In this document: one piece after another, positions 1-4,958 of the stretch | Layout of the letters: each line of letters starts with the position of its first letter | Numbering within the stretch: the first letter of the stretch is position 1 | Assembly: GCF_036507355.1 (NCBI RefSeq) | Contig: NZ_AP027883.1 | Reading direction: 5' to 3' (one strand) | DNA from: Escherichia coli | GTDB lineage: Bacteria > Pseudomonadota > Gammaproteobacteria > Enterobacterales > Enterobacteriaceae | DNA: 4,958 bases | Notes under the pieces: model-generated | Told to the model about the DNA's origin: nothing | The model's database searches: none | Seen by the model: only the letters and a program-made list of their open reading frames with translations | Made by a program: the position numbers and the translations under genes

Positions 1-124
1 AACCAGCCTCGACACCATCAAGAGCTGGGAAACCGGACGCCGTAACCCGACCGGACTGGCGGCGAAGGTACTGGCAACCATCCAGGCGAACCCGAAATTC
101 TTCCAGGAACTGGCGGCGCACTAA
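1..124 (+). CDS. higA: 3' part of a HigA2-like XRE-family helix-turn-helix antitoxin gene (5' part is at the window end; nt 1 is the third base of a codon split across the window boundary)
   Basis: Reading from nt 2 gives TSLDTIKSWETGRRNPTGLAAKVLATIQANPKFFQELAAH followed by TAA at 122-124. The SLDTIKSWETGRRNP stretch is the second helix and turn of a classic XRE-type HTH. It continues in frame from the partial ORF at 4798-4958. Confidence 0.75.
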   Translation, partial: TSLDTIKSWETGRRNPTGLAAKVLATIQANPKFFQELAAH

Positions 125-272
125 GCCGTTGTGACAGAAGGATTCGACAGGCGAGGCCGTTCGCGTGTAATTTAACGGCAACAGAAAAAACAAAGCCCCG
201 GAAATCATGTCATATCTTGGCGGATCGCATGATAACCAGGGCCAGGTCGAAACCTTGAAAGGATATTAGCAC

Positions 273-323
273 ATGAAACGTGCCAGACAACAGCCCGCCA
301 TAAGCGCAGGGCGAATTGAATAA
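273..323 (+). promoter_or_regulatory. Candidate 16-codon leader mini-ORF (MKRARQQPAISAGRIE) whose stop overlaps the rep start; possible translational-coupling element
   Basis: ATG at 273-275 preceded by AAGGA (259-263) at 9 nt spacing; in-frame TAA at 321-323 lies 3 nt after the TTG at 316 that opens the rep frame (aTTGAATAA). Purely sequence-based, no homology support. Confidence 0.25.
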
Positions 324-1284
324 CGCAGTACTCGAACTTTTCAACGACCGCTTACCGCACAAGCCGTACTTTTCGGACGATCTGCACTTTGGTGTACGCA
401 TTGCCGGTAAGGAACGCGCCATTCTGGCGAAATACATCCAGTTCAATCAGCCTCACGCCATGTTCTGGCTGGGATTCGACGTCGATCGCGCCGGTGCCGC
501 TATTGACTGGAGCGACCGCAATGCCCCCGCGCCGACACTGACGATCACCAACCCCGAAAACGGGCACGCGCACCTGCTTTACGCGCTGAAAACCCCGATA
601 CGTACCGCGCCAGACGGAAAAATGAAGCCATTACGCTACGCAGCTGCCGTAGAGAACGCGCTACGTAAAAAATTAGAGGCTGATGCGGGGTATTCGGGAC
701 TAATCTGCAAAAATCCGAACCACGGACACTGGAAAATTGCCGTATGGCAGCCGGAACTCTACACGCTGGACTGGTTGGCTGACTTTCTTGACCTGAACGC
801 AGCGAACGAAAAAGACATCGTTGATGACTACGGCTTAGGCCGTAACTGCACCTTGTTCGACAAGACCCGTAAGTGGGCATACCGCGCTATCCGTCAGGGC
901 TGGCCGGAGTATGAGCAGTGGCTGCAAGCCTGCTATGAGCGGGCTAGTGCTTACAACCTGCAATTTGCTGTGCCTCTGGATGAAAATGAGGTGAACGGGA
1001 TTGCTAAAAGCATTGCTAATTGGACAATATGCAATATGTCAGAATTCGAATTTAGAGAATACGTAAAGAAAACTCACACTTCAAAAATACAAGCTTTGAG
1101 AGGTAAGATTGGAGGTCGCAAAAGCAAAGGTGGAGGGCGTAGGAAAAATTCTAGTTGCCCCACATCAGAACGAACTACAAAGCCATGGGTTTTACTTGGT
1201 ATTAGTCGTTCGACTTATTACAGGAAAAAATCAAATAAATTTAAGGCTGATTTAAATGTCCAACCAGAAGAGTTTGAATATTGA
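316..1284 (+). CDS. rep: ColE2-type plasmid replication initiator Rep (plasmid-specific primase), probable TTG start
   Basis: 322-aa ORF. The N-terminal two thirds (LPHKPY, QPHAMFWLGFDVDR, NPENGHAHLLYAL, YSGLICKNPNHGHW, GLGRNCTLFDKTRKWAYR) and the C-terminal KPWVLLGISRSTYYRK match my recollection of the ColE2 Rep family. There is no in-frame ATG between the upstream stop (301-303) and residue 48, so TTG 316 is the only plausible start; the Shine-Dalgarno is weak (AGGG at 308-311). Confidence 0.85.
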   Translation: MNNAVLELFNDRLPHKPYFSDDLHFGVRIAGKERAILAKYIQFNQPHAMFWLGFDVDRAGAAIDWSDRNAPAPTLTITNPENGHAHLLYALKTPIRTAPDGKMKPLRYAAAVENALRKKLEADAGYSGLICKNPNHGHWKIAVWQPELYTLDWLADFLDLNAANEKDIVDDYGLGRNCTLFDKTRKWAYRAIRQGWPEYEQWLQACYERASAYNLQFAVPLDENEVNGIAKSIANWTICNMSEFEFREYVKKTHTSKIQALRGKIGGRKSKGGGRRKNSSCPTSERTTKPWVLLGISRSTYYRKKSNKFKADLNVQPEEFEY

Positions 1285-2275
1285 GTTGCTTAGGTGTCTC
1301 GCAGTAATTTCAGTGATTTTGATACATATGACCATGGGGCATTTTTACGATGCCTTGCTCATGCATGAAAATAAATTGTCATGGATTGTTAGTAATCTTT
1401 ACTACTCGTTAACTAGGTTTTGCGTCCCTATTTTTTTTATTATATCAGCTTATTTGGTTTTTAATAATAAATCCAATAAGAAATGGCATGAAAGATTAGT
1501 AAGACTTGGCTTGCCATTCGTCGCATGGTCGGCTATTTATTATGTGTACGGAGGAGGGCGCGATGCCTCGGAATTCCTAAAAAAAATACTAACAGAAAAC
1601 ACATCATTTCATCTTTGGTTTTTTCCTCCTTTTATAGGTTACACTCTTCTTCTTCCTGCGATCAAAAGTTTATTCATCAGTGAGAATAAAGATAAATTCA
1701 AATATATTTTCGTTATCATTTTTTTATCGTCCATCTTCACCCCTTCATTAATAATGCTGCTAAATTATTTTATTGGTGGCTATTCGTTTATCTATGGGAT
1801 AAGTAATTTTTGTTTAACGCTACCACCTTTGTTAGTATATGGTTTCGCATTTTCTTATTTTTACAAAAAAGTTAACGTGGTGAGTTGGTTTGTGGGGTAC
1901 TTAGTTATAATAATACTCAATATGATGATTAATATCATTATATCTAATAAGCTTGGCACACCTAATGAATGGTTTTATGGCTATACATCAGTTCTGGTTT
2001 TTATTTCTTCTTTTGTTTTATTCAACGTAGTCATGTCAATGAATCTTTCATTTCTTCCAGAAATGGCTGGTAAGGTTGTTTTGATTGTAGGACAGTGCTC
2101 ACTTGGAATATATTTATCTCATTGGTTGGTGTTTTTAATTTTGAGTAAGCATGGTTTATTGTTTTCTGGTAGAGCCATTGTTGATCCAATACTAAATACA
2201 GTAATAGTCTTTTGTGCTTCTATCGCTTTTACATTAGTAGTTCGAATTATTAAACCATTGCGCTATATCTTGTAG
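1256..2275 (+). CDS. Integral-membrane acyltransferase family 3 protein (AT3 / OafA-Oac-like O-acetyltransferase), substrate unknown
   Basis: 339-aa ORF, very AT-rich, hydrophobic throughout (multiple predicted transmembrane segments). N-terminal LLRCLAVISVILIH fits the AT3 first-helix signature R-x2-A-x3-V-x3-H, and FFIISAYLVF resembles the second conserved AT3 motif. ATG at 1256 is preceded by AAGG (1243-1246). The start overlaps the last 29 nt of rep. Stop TAG at 2273-2275. Confidence 0.8.
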   Translation: MSNQKSLNIELLRCLAVISVILIHMTMGHFYDALLMHENKLSWIVSNLYYSLTRFCVPIFFIISAYLVFNNKSNKKWHERLVRLGLPFVAWSAIYYVYGGGRDASEFLKKILTENTSFHLWFFPPFIGYTLLLPAIKSLFISENKDKFKYIFVIIFLSSIFTPSLIMLLNYFIGGYSFIYGISNFCLTLPPLLVYGFAFSYFYKKVNVVSWFVGYLVIIILNMMINIIISNKLGTPNEWFYGYTSVLVFISSFVLFNVVMSMNLSFLPEMAGKVVLIVGQCSLGIYLSHWLVFLILSKHGLLFSGRAIVDPILNTVIVFCASIAFTLVVRIIKPLRYIL

Positions 2276-2284
2276 CTCAATGGT

Positions 2285-2323
2285 TGTGAGACCAAAAACA
2301 AGCCTATATCAGATAACAGCCCT
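2285..2323. other. Probable ColE2-type replication origin (Rep binding and primer synthesis site)
   Basis: tgaGACCAaaaacAAGCCTaTATCAGATAACAGCcc closely resembles the ColE2-P9 minimal origin as I recall it (TGAGACCAGATAAGCCTTATCAGATAACAGCGCCC). In ColE2 plasmids the origin lies just downstream of rep; here it follows the cargo gene instead. Confidence 0.5.
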
Positions 2324-2346
2324 CTTTAGCAGAGGGCTGTTTTTTT
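2317..2346 (+). terminator. Rho-independent terminator closing the rep-acyltransferase transcription unit
   Basis: Perfect 9-bp stem CAGCCCTCT (2317-2325) / AGAGGGCTG (2331-2339) with 5-nt loop TTAGC, followed by a T7 run (2340-2346). Overlaps the 3' end of the origin-like sequence. Confidence 0.6.
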
Positions 2347-2518: not shown

Positions 2519-2845
2519 ATGGAAAAGCGAACGAAAGAGATAAAAATCCGGCTTACCGAAACCGAGCATCAGCGACTGCTTGATCGCTGCGACCGGACTC
2601 ACCTTGCGGAGTGGCTTCGTCAGCTCGGTCTGGGTGAACATACCTCCCGCAAGCGCCGTGTGCCTGAGGTGGCGCCCGAACTGCTGCGGCAGGTCAGCGG
2701 TATTGGCAATAACCTGAACCAGATTGCCCGCCGCCTGAACCAGGCTGATTCCCTGACGCCTTCTGAACGTGTCTCGCTGCTCGTCGTACTGACCAGCCTT
2801 GATCGGCAGCTTGGCGACCTGCTGGAGCAGAACCGTGATCGTTAA
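2519..2845 (+). CDS. mbeC: Mobilisation accessory protein MbeC/MobC (relaxosome DNA-binding protein)
   Basis: 108-aa ORF. TETEHQRLLDRCD, the LLRQVSGIGNNLNQIARRLN block and the overall length fit the ColE1 MbeC / MobC family as I recall it. GGAG at 2512-2515. Stop TAA (2843-2845) overlaps the relaxase GTG start. Confidence 0.8.
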   Translation: MEKRTKEIKIRLTETEHQRLLDRCDRTHLAEWLRQLGLGEHTSRKRRVPEVAPELLRQVSGIGNNLNQIARRLNQADSLTPSERVSLLVVLTSLDRQLGDLLEQNRDR

Positions 2846-4403
2846 AATTCACTCACGAGGTGCGGGTTCCGGCAGCGGGCCGGTAGATTACCTGTTGGGT
2901 AAAGACCGGCAGCGTGAACAGGCCTGCGTACTGCGTGGCAATCCTGAACATGTGCGTGAGCTGATCGACGGCTGCAACTTTGCCCGCGCCTACACTTCCG
3001 GCGTGCTTTCATTCCAGGAACCTGACATTGCAGACGCCGAGAAATCGCGCCTGATGGACGAATGGGAGCACACGCTGCTGACCGGACTCGACCGCGACCA
3101 GTACGCCTGCCTGTGGGTAGAGCATCGCGACAAGGGACGGCTTGAGCTGAATTTTGTCATCCCGAACATCGAATTGCAGAGTGGAAAACGCCTGCAACCC
3201 TACTTTGACCGCGCCGACCGTCCCCGCGTCAACGCCTGGCAGACCCTGACCAACGACCGGCTGGGGCTGCGCGACCCGAATGACCCGACCTACCGCCGTC
3301 CGCTGACGCAGGCCAGCGATCTGCCCCGCGACAAACAGCAGGCGGCAGAGAAAATCACCGCCGGCCTGATGAACCTGATGCAGCAGGGCGTGATCCGCAG
3401 CCGGCAGGACGTGGTGACGCAGCTGGAAAGCTACGGCCTGACCGTAGCGCGGGAAACGAAAAGCAGCATCAGCATTGCCGATCCGGACGGCGGCCGAAAT
3501 ATCCGGCTGAAAGGAATGATTTATGAGCGAGATTTTAAATTTGGCGAAGGGCTTCGAGGAGAAATCGAAGCAGCAGGCGCAGGATACCGAGCAGAGCGTG
3601 AAGCGCGAGTTCGCGAGGCTGGAGACGTCTATCAGCGCGGAACTGCAATCAAGCTCGCAGAGCATCAGCAACGCTATCCGCGAGCAGAACGGCAGGCTGA
3701 CGGGCATGATCAGAACCTCCGTTTCAGCGGCGATGGCGTGGGTATTCCTCTGCTTCGCCCTGCTGATCGGCATCATGGGGGGGATAATCTGGTTTCAGGG
3801 CACGATCATCACCTCGCGCCTGAGCGAAATGGACAGCTACAGCCAGCAGCTGGCGAACCTGAAAGCGAAAAGCGGCGCGGGCGTGGCGATCTACAGCGAC
3901 GACAAGCACCGGAACACCTACATGGTGGTGCTGCCGAAGCAGGCGCACGGCGTGGAAACCTATACATCGACGACCGACAACACCGTAGTGAAATACACGG
4001 CGAAATAACCCCGTCAGAGCGCCCTGAAACGACACAGCGCGTTTTTAACACCGAGGATGACCAAAACCATGACCGAGATGGAAAAACAGCTTCTGAGCGC
4101 CTTAGAGAGCTTACAGACAAGCTACGAGCAACAGCAGCAGGCGTGGCAGGACAGCTACAGCAGCTTGCAGCACATGTTCGAGGCTACCTCACAGGCGCTG
4201 ACGCACAGCGACCGGGTGTGTCAGCACTTGAGCAGTCAGGTAGAGAGCTTGCGCGCGCAGGTCGAGAGCTTGAGCAGGAACGTCAGCCGCTTGATGCGTT
4301 GATCAGGCAGCACGACCGCGCCTACGCCGAGAAGCTGCGTGAGCAGCAGCCAGAGCCGGAGCCGCAGAAAAAAACGACCCGCTACTATGGCCCCTCGATG
4401 TGA
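2835..4403 (+). CDS. mbeA: MOB-HEN (ColE1 MbeA-type) conjugative relaxase; start placed at GTG 2835 rather than the ATG at 2799 in the ORF track
   Basis: From GTG 2835 the protein starts MIVKIHSRGAGSGSGPVDYLL, putting the catalytic Tyr at residue 19 and the HEN motif at H97/E104/N106 (LWVEHRDKGRLELNFVIPN), the same numbering as ColE1 MbeA. GTG 2835 is in frame with ATG 2799 and overlaps the mbeC stop (GTGATCGTTAA). 522 aa; the C-terminal half is low-complexity and charged. Confidence 0.85.
   Translation: MIVKIHSRGAGSGSGPVDYLLGKDRQREQACVLRGNPEHVRELIDGCNFARAYTSGVLSFQEPDIADAEKSRLMDEWEHTLLTGLDRDQYACLWVEHRDKGRLELNFVIPNIELQSGKRLQPYFDRADRPRVNAWQTLTNDRLGLRDPNDPTYRRPLTQASDLPRDKQQAAEKITAGLMNLMQQGVIRSRQDVVTQLESYGLTVARETKSSISIADPDGGRNIRLKGMIYERDFKFGEGLRGEIEAAGAGYRAEREARVREAGDVYQRGTAIKLAEHQQRYPRAERQADGHDQNLRFSGDGVGIPLLRPADRHHGGDNLVSGHDHHLAPERNGQLQPAAGEPESEKRRGRGDLQRRQAPEHLHGGAAEAGARRGNLYIDDRQHRSEIHGEITPSERPETTQRVFNTEDDQNHDRDGKTASERLRELTDKLRATAAGVAGQLQQLAAHVRGYLTGADAQRPGVSALEQSGRELARAGRELEQERQPLDALIRQHDRAYAEKLREQQPEPEPQKKTTRYYGPSM
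3523..4008 (+). CDS. mbeB: MbeB-like mobilisation protein, nested in the +1 frame inside mbeA
   Basis: 161-aa ORF with AAGGA (3511-3515) 7 nt before the ATG; a charged N-terminal region followed by one hydrophobic segment (AAMAWVFLCFALLIGIMGGIIWF). Position and architecture match ColE1 mbeB; call is positional/architectural rather than from verified sequence identity. Confidence 0.6.
   Translation: MSEILNLAKGFEEKSKQQAQDTEQSVKREFARLETSISAELQSSSQSISNAIREQNGRLTGMIRTSVSAAMAWVFLCFALLIGIMGGIIWFQGTIITSRLSEMDSYSQQLANLKAKSGAGVAIYSDDKHRNTYMVVLPKQAHGVETYTSTTDNTVVKYTAK
4069..4302 (+). CDS. mbeD: MbeD-like mobilisation protein, nested in the +1 frame inside the 3' part of mbeA
   Basis: ORF track starts at ATG 4057 (no spacing after GAGG). 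The in-frame ATG 4069 (MTEMEKQLLSALESLQ...) has GAGGA 11 nt upstream and better fits the ColE1 MbeD start as I recall it. Coiled-coil-like repeats (QVESLRAQVESLSRNV). Same frame as mbeB. Confidence 0.55.
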   Translation: MTEMEKQLLSALESLQTSYEQQQQAWQDSYSSLQHMFEATSQALTHSDRVCQHLSSQVESLRAQVESLSRNVSRLMR

Positions 4404-4404
4404 C

Positions 4405-4460
4405 CGCTTTTCCGAAATCAGAATTAAGTGTACTATGTACTCCGTTAAAAACAGGAGACA
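4405..4460 (+). promoter_or_regulatory. Putative higBA promoter/operator region
   Basis: 60-bp gap between the mbeA stop and the higB start contains TTAAGTGTACTATGTACTCCGTTAA, with a GTAC-TAT-GTAC dyad (4427-4440) overlapping a possible -10 (TACTAT 4431-4436), then a strong AGGAG (4453-4457) 6 nt before the GTG. Toxin-antitoxin operators are typically palindromes overlapping the promoter. Confidence 0.3.
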
Positions 4461-4463
4461 GCC

Positions 4464-4796
4464 GTGAGTCACGCGATTGAGTTTATCGAGACCCCGATGT
4501 TTACCCGTCAGATAAAACAGATCGCCACGGATGAAGAACTCAGGGAGCTGCAAAAGACGCTGATTGAGTCGCCGGACAAAGGCGATCTCATTCAGAAAAC
4601 CGGCGGGCTGCGCAAAATCAGGATGGCGACGGGCAACCAGGGAAAAAGCGGCAGCGTGAGGGTGATTTACTTTCTGGCCACCGCCGAGGTGATCTATCTG
4701 GTGATGGCCTACCCGAAAAGCACCAAAGACAGCCTGACGGACGCGGAAAAAGCCGCGCTGAAGACGCTGACCCAACAACTGAAAGACGAGGTGTGA
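4464..4796 (+). CDS. higB: HigB2-like (RelE/ParE superfamily) type II toxin, GTG start
   Basis: 110-aa ORF. TGGLRKIRMATGNQGKSGSVRVIYF and the downstream AEVIYLVMAYPKSTKDSLTD match the HigB-2 toxin family (GTGGLRKIR...GKRGGSRIIYYF...YLL..Y.K pattern) as recalled from Vibrio HigB-2. Toxin-first gene order is typical of hig modules. Stop TGA 4794-4796, 1 nt before the antitoxin ATG. Confidence 0.8.
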   Translation: MSHAIEFIETPMFTRQIKQIATDEELRELQKTLIESPDKGDLIQKTGGLRKIRMATGNQGKSGSVRVIYFLATAEVIYLVMAYPKSTKDSLTDAEKAALKTLTQQLKDEV

Positions 4797-4797
4797 C

Positions 4798-4958
4798 ATG
4801 AGTTTTTTTGACGAGCTGAAAGCATCGCTGGAAGAAGCCGTTGAAATCAAAAACGGCGTCAGAGAGCCTGCCCGCGTCACCCGTTACGAGCTGGCAGACG
4901 TGAAAGCCATCAGGGCACAGCTGAACGTATCTCAGAGCGAGATGGCGAAAGTGCTGGG
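4798..4958 (+). CDS. higA: 5' part of the HigA2-like XRE-family HTH antitoxin gene (runs off the window end and continues at nt 1)
   Basis: MSFFDELKASLEEAVEIKNGVREPARVTRYELADVKAIRAQLNVSQSEMAKVLG...; LNVSQSEMAKVLG is the first helix of an XRE HTH. 53 complete codons plus GG; with nt 1 (A) this makes GGA (Gly) and continues in frame into the 1-124 fragment. Confidence 0.8.
   Translation, partial: MSFFDELKASLEEAVEIKNGVREPARVTRYELADVKAIRAQLNVSQSEMAKVL

Follow-up and report, generated by a model that had tools for sequence, protein, structure and literature searches.

A HigB2/HigA2-family gene pair as a candidate stability determinant of a small plasmid from Escherichia coli

A small plasmid from Escherichia coli (contig NZ_AP027883.1, assembly GCF_036507355.1) probably carries an autoregulated, functional type II toxin–antitoxin (TA) system of the HigBA2 family, which would be its only recognisable stability determinant. 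The stretch of DNA analysed, here called the window, is 4,958 nucleotides long and corresponds to the whole circular plasmid, linearised within the antitoxin gene, so that this reading frame runs on across both ends. By sequence, conserved active site and predicted fold, the gene pair belongs to the family of Vibrio cholerae HigB2/HigA2, and in our judgement it is very probably a functional TA pair of this type. We are more reserved about its weight in plasmid maintenance: that the cassette is the main stability determinant is a tentative reading and somewhat doubtful. Toxicity, lability of the antitoxin, repression and an effect on plasmid retention are properties that we infer for the pair. 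The cassette itself is already known, being annotated on about 150 sequenced plasmids; for its family, an operator has been mapped and crystal structures have been solved.

The toxin and antitoxin proteins

The initial annotation called the pair HigB2/HigA2-like, and homology searches with both proteins bore this out. The top PDB match of the toxin was VcHigB-2 (phmmer, E = 1e-14, residues 6-99), and that of the antitoxin was VcHigA-2 (E = 1.8e-7). The toxin scored 39.8 bits against Pfam PF06296 (cut-off 27) and is 34-35% identical to V. cholerae HigB2 over about 100 residues. In the alignment, K49, R51, R64, Y82 and K84 of VcHigB2 (numbering from PMC5416850 and PMC10098735) correspond to K51, R53, R66, Y83 and K85, so the putative active site is kept at all five positions. 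These residues are unchanged in 13 homologues with identities down to about 40%, and the toxin precedes the antitoxin at 13 of 13 homologous loci. Purifying selection on the pair is strong, with dN/dS at 0.07-0.14 in the toxin gene and at 0.03-0.09 in the antitoxin gene.

The antitoxin is a protein of 94 residues whose frame is unbroken over the circular junction (coding positions 1-121 after it). The part of the gene before the junction encodes the N-terminal, putatively toxin-neutralising segment and the beginning of the helix-turn-helix (HTH) domain. Over its entire length (residues 1-94 of 94) the protein matches the NCBIfam equivalog NadS (NF041265) with 176.7 bits, against a cut-off of 60, and it also matches Pfam HTH_3 (E = 9e-10). 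In the PGAP annotation, the two products are a RelE/ParE-family toxin and a NadS-family protein; our literature search for "NadS" found no paper that explains the name or tests the family.

An AlphaFold2 model of the fused toxin and antitoxin had a mean pLDDT of 82, with low values in the linker only, and every top Foldseek match of this model was a HigB2/HigA2 crystal chain. The toxin part, with block-mean pLDDT of 77-97, aligned to HigB2 chains (8a0x/5jaa) with TM scores of 0.78-0.83 and rmsd of 1.8-2.7 Å, and thus has a predicted RelE-like fold. The antitoxin HTH domain aligned to 5j9i with TM scores of 0.80-0.86 and rmsd of 1.4-1.8 Å. At the antitoxin N-terminus, in a region with no detectable sequence match to VcHigA2, the model places a helix (residues 3-18) and a strand (residues 26-31) with block-mean pLDDT of 86-97; the N-terminus of VcHigA2 is likewise a helix followed by a strand (PMC5416850). 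The putative contact between toxin and antitoxin was read from the confidence values because the model output came without coordinates.

The V. cholerae system (VCA0468/VCA0469; PDB 5JAA, 5JA8, 8A0X) is toxin-first, as here, and its toxin has the same length, RelE-like fold and K/R/R/Y/K active site. VcHigA2 combines an N-terminal neutralising helix and strand with a C-terminal HTH-XRE domain; our antitoxin has such an HTH-XRE domain and, going by the model, may have the N-terminal part as well. The two systems differ in that VcHigBA2 resides in the chromosomal superintegron whereas the present cassette is plasmid-borne, and in antitoxin length (about 104 residues in VcHigA2 versus 94 here). 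E. coli RelBE and Proteus Rts1 HigBA belong to the same superfamily, with a RelE/ParE fold and ribosome-dependent mRNA cleavage, and neither was among the sequence or fold matches (Pfam, PDB phmmer, Foldseek). Rts1 HigBA is toxin-first, and RelBE is antitoxin-first with a ribbon-helix-helix antitoxin. In Rts1 HigB the C-terminal helix is missing, and its structure is the more distant one (PMC5416850).

A plasmid-borne HigBA2 homologue, ToxP/AntitoxP (CBUA0028/0027), has been characterised on plasmid QpH1 of Coxiella burnetii, and it shares the reverse gene order of the present cassette (PMC10098735). ToxP is toxic and blocks translation. AntitoxP neutralises it and binds the toxin as well as the promoter, and the authors tie the pair to plasmid retention (PMC10098735). 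The host of this system is distant and its plasmid large, and it is likened to the present cassette by description. The plasmid-borne HigBA2Ab system of Acinetobacter baumannii (pAB120), which has the name and the reverse gene order in common with the present pair, was considered as the nearest characterised homologue and rejected, since its toxin is of the different, GP49-like family and the published primers encode MWTVITT... A true Acinetobacter homologue (L019) begins MLFIETSIF..., belongs to PF06296 and lacks the HigBA2Ab primer sequences; the HigBA2Ab locus was not found in the first 30 kb of p3ABAYE. Deletion of HigBA2Ab left its native plasmid stable (PMC5906591), which we take as a caution.

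Promoter region, operator candidate and proposed mechanism

The features from which the initial annotation argued for an autoregulated hig-type module were recovered at the positions listed in Table 1. The toxin gene comes first and is separated from the antitoxin ATG by a single base (C at 4797), an AGGAG precedes the GTG toxin start, and a GTAC-TAT-GTAC dyad lies in the promoter region. The extent originally given to the feature, 4405-4958, fails at its end, where the antitoxin gene continues across the junction.

Table 1. Features of the cassette and of the neighbouring replicon (window coordinates; the plasmid is circular).
Feature	Position	Strand	Remarks
mbeA stop TGA	4401-4403		immediately 5' of cassette
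promoter/operator region	4404-4463	+	from mbeA stop to toxin start
-35-like TTTTCC, weak	4408-4413	+	17 nt before TACTAT
dyad GTAC-TAT-GTAC	4430-4440		putative antitoxin operator; longer form GTGTAC-TAT-GTAC at 4428-4440
-10-like hexamer TACTAT	4431-4436	+	inside dyad; TACAAT in most relatives
toxin Shine-Dalgarno AGGAG	4453-4457	+	6 nt 5' of GTG at 4464
toxin gene	4464-4796	+	110 aa; GTG start; stop TGA 4794-4796
antitoxin Shine-Dalgarno GAGG	4788-4791	+	within 3' end of toxin gene; 6 nt 5' of ATG
antitoxin gene, 5' part	4798-4958	+	ATG at 4798; first 53 codons plus two bases of codon 54
antitoxin gene, 3' part	1-124	+	HTH-XRE domain; stop TAA 122-124
terminator-like hairpin, weak	151-164	+	just 3' of antitoxin gene; terminator scan
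rep leader	187-305	+	sub-threshold Rfam matches to antisense-RNA control elements
ColE2-type rep gene	316-1284	+	Pfam Replicase and PriCT_1
ColE2-type origin and following hairpin-T-run	2287-2341	+	core ATCAGATAACAGC at 2308-2320
terminator-like hairpin after ori core	2315-2341		terminator scan

The dyad occurs once in the window, against 0.02 occurrences expected by chance. In an alignment of eight diverged copies from seven genera it is the sole invariant block 5' of the toxin: GTGTACnnTGTAC is constant within otherwise diverged upstream regions and overlaps the TACAAT/TACTAT hexamer. Relatives carry a fuller palindrome, GGTGTAC-N3-GTACACC; the dyad is present in Oceanisphaera as well, and a 50%-identical Klebsiella copy has GTAC-N3-GTAC twice. 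Because the dyad is conserved and lies over a -10-like hexamer, it is a likely candidate for the antitoxin operator. The promoter itself is less distinct. A strict sigma-70 consensus scan detected none 5' of the toxin, so the proposal rests on hexamers picked by eye and on conservation; the candidate is weak in the window, and its counterpart in relatives is better (TAGACG, 16 nt, TACAAT). Transcription of the operon may also come partly from read-through out of mbeA.

The operator of VcHigA2 is one inverted repeat covering the -10 element (PMC11006873), and a repeat containing TGTAC over a -10 element is also what we see here. The putative operator (GGTGTAC-N3-GTACACC in the fuller form of relatives) differs from the Vibrio sequence (TGTACGC-N5-GCGTACA), with GTAC cores that are 6 bp nearer to one another. 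Three of four base-contacting residues differ between the two antitoxins, R68, E71 and N72 of VcHigA2 being replaced by D58, K61 and S62. Given these changed contacts and the 3-bp rather than 5-bp spacing, DNA binding as described for Vibrio is not simply transferable.

We propose the following mechanism. The first gene product would act as a RelE-fold, ribosome-dependent mRNA endonuclease, and the N-terminal ~33 residues of the antitoxin would lay a helix and a strand on the toxin to neutralise it. The C-terminal HTH-XRE domain, presumably dimeric, would bind the GTGTAC-N3-GTAC dyad over the -10 element and repress the operon. The weak GTG start of the toxin, compared with the antitoxin ATG and its own Shine-Dalgarno sequence, could secure an excess of antitoxin despite the toxin-first order. 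Upon plasmid loss, the labile antitoxin would decay and the toxin would arrest or kill the cell (post-segregational killing). With neither a canonical Xer site nor partition genes on the plasmid, the cassette would be its only recognisable stability determinant.

Replicon, cassette borders and multimer resolution

By its Rep primase and conserved ori core, both of which are present, the replicon is assigned to the multicopy ColE2 type. Rep matches Pfam Replicase (E = 2.8e-46) and PriCT_1 (E = 1.2e-8), and its leader gave Rfam matches to PK-repBA (E = 2.3e-6) and a CopA-like element (E = 0.45), both below the gathering score. The core ATCAGATAACAGC occurs once in the window and likewise once in each of 10-11 related plasmids. 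A cargo gene stands between rep and ori; it encodes an acyltransferase-3, for which neither PLSDB nor the complete E. coli genomes contained a close match. In Rahnella pHW66 the origin is similarly set apart from rep by low-G+C cargo (PMC2831885). The ORF listing and Pfam and NCBIfam profile searches revealed no recombinase or partition gene among the plasmid's ORFs.

Two sibling plasmids, L012 and L013, have these mob and rep flanks too, and lack both the cassette and an Xer site. Their homology to the window ends at 4403 and picks up again at 171, which puts the left border at 4404 and the right border at ~170/171 and gives a cassette of 725 bp (4404-4958 plus 1-170). In relatives that bear an Xer site, homology starts about 41-58 nt 3' of the antitoxin stop. 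Judged from these alignments, the cassette is a discrete, swappable unit. Its practical use is modest and includes the exact borders and a well-supported operator candidate for NadS-type antitoxins.

The initial annotation had found no convincing Xer-type site, and a systematic scan came to the same result. The search covered the circular sequence in both orientations and used the motif GGTGCGYRYAA-N6-8-TTATGKTAAAY (11-bp XerC arm, 6-8 bp centre, 11-bp XerD arm), that is, the canonical XerC/XerD consensus only. The window contained no canonical site; its best candidate had 8 mismatches in 22 positions, and the best sites in each of 30 shuffled sequences were better (4-7 mismatches). The controls cer, dif and psi were each recovered with 0 mismatches. 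Applied to four rep-related ColE2-type plasmids (L014-L017), the same scan detected near-perfect sites (1-2 mismatches), and it gave no candidate in the TA-bearing relatives L001-L003 or in L012 and L013. Absence of an Xer site from this plasmid lineage was already published in 2010: Rozhon et al. reported that the related plasmids pHW66 and pUB6060 have no multimer-resolution site (PMC2831885).

The same annotation went further and took the module to be the apparent sole, or main, stability function of the plasmid. The missing canonical Xer site fits that claim, and the siblings L012 and L013, which are without cassette or Xer site on a multicopy replicon, speak against it; with such siblings in existence, the word "sole" is plausible but goes too far. 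An unrecognised resolution or stability function, such as a non-canonical site or one served by a recombinase provided in trans, could in principle reduce the TA pair to a mere accessory. The scan was confined to the canonical consensus, and L012 and L013 suggest that either something else maintains the backbone or nothing further is needed. Against this explanation, the plasmid encodes no recombinase or partition gene, its best Xer-like match is poorer than those of shuffled sequence, and an expert in multimer resolution found no site in pHW66 and pUB6060. Related plasmids have also been deposited as multimers, which may, however, be assembly artefacts. We give this explanation only a very slight chance of being correct.

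Distribution and the region upstream of rep

The cassette was found in 157 PLSDB plasmid records, compared with 1268 records that match some portion of the window. Among 5426 complete E. coli genomes it was present on plasmids only, and toxin homologues also occur in a few phage records. On pHW66, p58 and about 150 other small Enterobacterales plasmids, the same cassette lies between mbeA/mbeD and a ColE2-type rep; the copies on p58 and these other plasmids are identical or nearly so. The plasmid p58 of ETEC H10407 has an annotated toxin whose protein is 99% identical, and the DNA stretch compared is 100% identical; orf5/orf6 of pHW66 are about 83% identical to the cassette at the DNA level. 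These two ORFs were labelled "unknown function" in 2010 (PMC2831885) and are now annotated as a RelE/ParE toxin and NadS, or as HigB-2/HigA-2. Plasmids of the pHW66/p58 group resemble ours in lacking an XerCD site and in the separation of ori from rep by low-G+C cargo; only the cargo differs.

In the distant hosts Pseudomonas, Aeromonas and Oceanisphaera, which carry the pair on large plasmids, the shared sequence runs from the dyad through the antitoxin stop and no further. This restricted homology, the sharp limits of the 725-bp unit (mbeA stop and 170/171), and the share of matching records that contain the cassette would all suit a portable addiction module of a selfish kind, carried along with no measurable benefit to the plasmid. 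We regard such a module as quite improbable; stability elements have repeatedly taken the rep-proximal slot, which argues for a benefit. It is also hard to tell from post-segregational stabilisation, because the killing of segregants still stabilises the carrier.

Five arrangements were found upstream of the rep control region among ColE2-type plasmids. Three include an Xer site, which stands alone, together with YoeB/YefM, or with a 78-aa ORF nearby (L015); in one ColE2-type relative the YoeB/YefM pair occupies the same position upstream of rep as the present cassette. The other two have mob genes together with either the HigBA2-type cassette or an unknown ORF of 78 aa, the latter in the absence of an Xer site. 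This stretch could be a slot in which different maintenance cassettes are exchanged for one another, in which case the TA pair would functionally stand in for multimer resolution, but we rate this proposal as a long shot. When copy number is low, a derepressed TA promoter might in addition send transcription into rep, and so couple addiction to copy-number recovery. Such feed-through is conceivable because a mere weak hairpin lies between the antitoxin gene and the rep leader.

The location of the cassette also bears on whether a functional TA pair was selected for plasmid competition or anti-phage abortive infection rather than for segregational stability. In many relatives the cargo slot of the backbone holds anti-phage genes (dCTP deaminase, AIPR, TIR, DUF262, AAA ATPase, Kiwa and restriction-modification parts), and toxin homologues are known from the phage records noted above. 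Moreover, chance loss of copies is small for a multicopy plasmid, and L012 and L013 persist with no cassette. However, PADLOC-DB 2.0 gave only generic HTH matches for the antitoxin and a chance-level CARF match (E = 0.007) for the toxin. The rep-adjacent slot that holds the cassette is used elsewhere for Xer sites, or for Xer together with another TA pair, and its occupancy therefore points to maintenance; the characterised Coxiella homologue is likewise tied to plasmid retention. Taken together, a role outside stability seems unlikely to us.

These plasmids form a natural comparison set, in which the same backbone occurs with the TA pair, without it, or with an Xer site, and from which the share of the TA pair in persistence could be estimated. 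Such a comparison bears on small multicopy plasmids, which often carry phage-defence cargo. Among other ColE2-like plasmids, pMUT2 of E. coli Nissle has been reported with a relBE pair.

A HigBA2-family pair on a small ColE2-type plasmid

The window is a complete small circular plasmid of 4958 bases, linearised within the antitoxin gene. About 75% of it matches, at 94-97% identity, numerous plasmids of 5-6 kb from Salmonella, Klebsiella and E. coli, p58 of ETEC H10407 among them, with the cargo as the sole difference from the window.

Features of the window and of plasmids sharing parts of its backbone
Feature	Plasmid	Coordinates	Remarks
Rep leader	window	187-305	
rep, ColE2-type	window	316-1284	Pfam Replicase and PriCT_1
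Acyltransferase-3 cargo gene	window	1256-2275	low G+C (about 31%)
ColE2-type ori	window	2287-2341	
mbeC	window	2519-2845	ColE1-type mobilisation
mbeA	window	2835-4403	ColE1-type mobilisation
mbeB, mbeD	window		ColE1-type mobilisation; nested within mbeA
GTAC-TAT-GTAC dyad	window	4430-4440	
AGGAG	window	4453-4457	six bases 5' of GTG
Toxin ORF	window	4464-4796	GTG start
Antitoxin ORF	window	4798-4958, in frame on from base 1	ATG start; TAA stop 122-124; 94 aa
78-aa ORF (MAKGAQAISKEINELMRKNG...)	L012	825-1061	upstream of rep
78-aa ORF	L013	876-1112	upstream of rep
78-aa ORF	L015	1796-2032	upstream of rep
Xer site	L014	~3302	upstream of rep
Xer site	L015	~1620	upstream of rep
Xer site	L016	676	upstream of rep
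Xer site	L017	~4890	upstream of rep

The initial annotation proposed a HigB2/HigA2-like module, and homology searches bore this out, with V. cholerae HigB-2 and HigA-2 as the best solved relatives of the two proteins. The toxin exceeds the Pfam threshold for PF06296, and across all solved structures its best matches are the five V. cholerae HigB-2 entries (E about 1e-14). The antitoxin belongs to the NadS family over its full length (176.7 bits against a cut-off of 60), and its closest solved relative is VcHigA-2 (E 1.8e-7). The toxin-first order, the 1-nt gap and the AGGAG before a GTG start are all present as first described. This GTG is the correct start; F7, E9 and F13 just after it are conserved in homologues and the V. 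cholerae HigB2 alignment begins at toxin residue 6.

The HigB2 active site, defined by mutagenesis or listing, comprises K49, R51, R64, Y82 and K84 (PMC5416850; PMC10098735), which correspond by alignment to toxin K51, R53, R66, Y83 and K85. These residues are invariant in all 13 toxin-antitoxin pairs that we collected from gamma-, beta- and alphaproteobacterial plasmids, including pairs with identity as low as about 40%; the wider toxin family occurs on 923 plasmid records. We then modeled a toxin-linker-antitoxin fusion with AlphaFold2, using a paired alignment of the 13 pairs, and confidence was high throughout except in the linker. The antitoxin N-terminus is predicted to form a helix at aa 3-18 and then a strand at aa 26-31, which is the shape reported for toxin-bound VcHigA2 (PMC5416850). 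The top Foldseek matches in the PDB were all HigB2 or HigA2 chains (TM 0.78-0.86, rmsd 1.4-2.7 A). Strong purifying selection acts on both genes (dN/dS 0.03-0.14), and these values together with the invariant active-site residues rule out a decayed, non-functional pair. A Proteus-type HigBA identity was rejected, as was A. baumannii "HigBA2Ab", which has its name alone in common with the pair.

The pair belongs to the HigBA2 family and shows its defining features wherever they could be tested, except for the toxin-antitoxin contact, which is a putative one. It was already known: the annotated p58 toxin shares 99% protein identity with the window toxin (100% over the compared DNA), and other pipelines label the genes Toxin HigB-2 and Antitoxin HigA-2, although the two ORFs had been entered as unknown function in 2010 (PMC2831885). 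Three 8136-bp E. coli plasmids (CP099145.1, CP057000.1 and CP058038.1) carry the antitoxin gene with the 3' third only of the toxin gene, the match beginning at query position 307 of 679, and may be orphan-antitoxin remnants.

In the best-supported reading, the cassette (4404-4958 plus 1-170; 725 bp) is very probably a functional HigBA2-type type II toxin-antitoxin system. By analogy with the family, the toxin would be a RelE-like, ribosome-dependent mRNA interferase neutralised by the N-terminal segment of a labile antitoxin. The antitoxin HTH domain would bind the dyad over the -10 element to autorepress the operon, and segregants without the plasmid would be killed or arrested, thereby stabilising the plasmid.

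The putative operator

The dyad noted in the promoter region occurs once, against 0.02 copies expected by chance. We aligned the 100 nt 5' of the toxin gene from eight copies (the window, E. coli pMB8093_3, Yersinia ruckeri, Serratia, Pectobacterium, Rahnella pHW66, Pseudomonas syringae and Aeromonas), and found that GTGTACnnTGTAC is invariant between essentially unalignable flanks. Overlapping the block is a -10-like hexamer, which reads TACAAT in most copies and TACTAT in the window; the Yersinia/Rahnella group has a TAGACG -35 element 16 nt 5' of the hexamer. The dyad is a full palindrome, GGTGTAC-N3-GTACAC(C), in Aeromonas and Oceanisphaera, and a Klebsiella IncFII copy (50% identical) has two GTAC-N3-GTAC units.

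The footprinted VcHigA2 operator, TGTACGC-N5-GCGTACA, likewise consists of one inverted repeat that lies over the -10 element (PMC11006873), and a Ralstonia homologue carries TATACGC-N5-GCGTATA, which is nearly identical. The VcHigA2 operator and the dyad have the GTAC core in common but differ in spacing, and three of the four VcHigA2 base-contacting residues differ in the window antitoxin. Therefore, the dyad is best described as a family-typical putative operator with its own specificity. A strict promoter scan upstream of the toxin gene reported no promoter, which suggests that the promoter of the window copy is weak; read-through from mbeA is a possible source of cassette transcription.

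The rep-proximal slot and plasmid maintenance

We searched the circular sequence for Xer sites (XerC arm, 6-8 bp centre, XerD arm) on both strands. In agreement with the initial annotation, none was recognised: the best window site had 8/22 mismatches, worse than in shuffled sequence, whereas cer, dif and psi scored perfectly. We considered an unrecognised resolution site on the plasmid as an alternative. The same scan gave no Xer site in the other mob-TA plasmids (L001-L003), and pHW66 and pUB6060 also lack a XerCD site according to Rozhon et al. 2010, with interpretation by D. K. Summers, although such sites are otherwise frequent among ColE2-like plasmids (PMC2831885). Four ColE2-type plasmids (L014-L017), which share about 88% identity with the window in rep and its leader, carry GGTGCG..CAA-CGGATG-TTATGGTAAAT, also written GGTGCG(N3)AA-CGGATG-TTATGGTAAAT, with 1-2 mismatches. 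The site lies about 200 bp 5' of rep in L014-L016 and further upstream in L017, where a YoeB/YefM pair intervenes. These near-perfect sites, and the additional pair in L017, show that the rep-proximal slot holds varied maintenance elements by lineage.

Two siblings on the same backbone, L012 (Enterobacter) and L013 (E. coli pLAO2), match the window up to the mbeA stop (4403) and again from 171. Between these points the 725-bp cassette is replaced by 366 bp containing a 78-aa ORF, and we found neither a Xer site nor a homologue of either toxin-antitoxin protein in them. The ORF has no Pfam match; it occurs in plasmids without the cassette, and the L015 copy is close to a Xer site.

The cassette had been proposed as the sole or main means of maintenance, through post-segregational killing. 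No other stability element can be recognised on the plasmid, and a stability role fits the relatives, in which the slot is occupied by a Xer site with or without a different toxin-antitoxin pair. "Sole" and "main" call for caution, because siblings exist with neither cassette nor Xer site, the replicon is multicopy, and deletion of a toxin-antitoxin system of another family is reported not to have destabilised its native small plasmid (PMC5906591). That the cassette is the main stability determinant is accordingly a tentative and somewhat doubtful proposal. A purely selfish module was also considered. PLSDB has the cassette in 157 records, among them large plasmids of Pseudomonas and Aeromonas where similarity runs from the dyad to the antitoxin stop, and it occurs in 29 of 5426 complete E. 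coli genomes, always plasmid-borne.

In two deposited records of related plasmids, L011 (NZ_JBRAVH010000004.1, 14,910 bp) and NZ_CP138436.1 (21,085 bp), the whole backbone is repeated three to four times in tandem with some rearrangement, and there are four toxin-antitoxin copies apiece. They may represent true multimers of a plasmid that lacks a resolution site, or artefacts of long-read assembly.

Cargo and replication region

A role of the cassette in defence or competition is an alternative to which the backbone's cargo slot, rich in defence genes, points; however, PADLOC gives no support. In relatives this slot is filled by anti-phage genes (dCTP deaminase, AIPR, TIR, Kiwa, DUF262, AAA ATPase and RM parts). 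In the window, a 1.2-kb segment of ~31% G+C (1092-2295) parts ori from rep, and the start of the acyltransferase gene overlaps the rep end. The acyltransferase has nothing close in PLSDB (all under 30% aa identity), and near-identical DNA is absent from the complete E. coli genomes searched.

The rep leader gave sub-threshold Rfam matches to PK-repBA on the + strand (39.8 bits; gathering score 45) and to a CopA-like antisense RNA on the - strand (E 0.45), which fits ColE2-type antisense-RNA control of rep translation. Similarity of rep to p58 stops at 1091. The C-terminal 64 residues of Rep are encoded by A+T-rich DNA and have a longer insert, RRKNSSCPTSERTTK, ahead of a conserved PW..GIS..TYY motif. 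In ori, the variable left-hand half (2287-2307) is correspondingly longer, TGAGACCAAAAACAAGCCTAT. The Rep C-terminus (1092-1284) and the ori left half look like a matched specificity pair.
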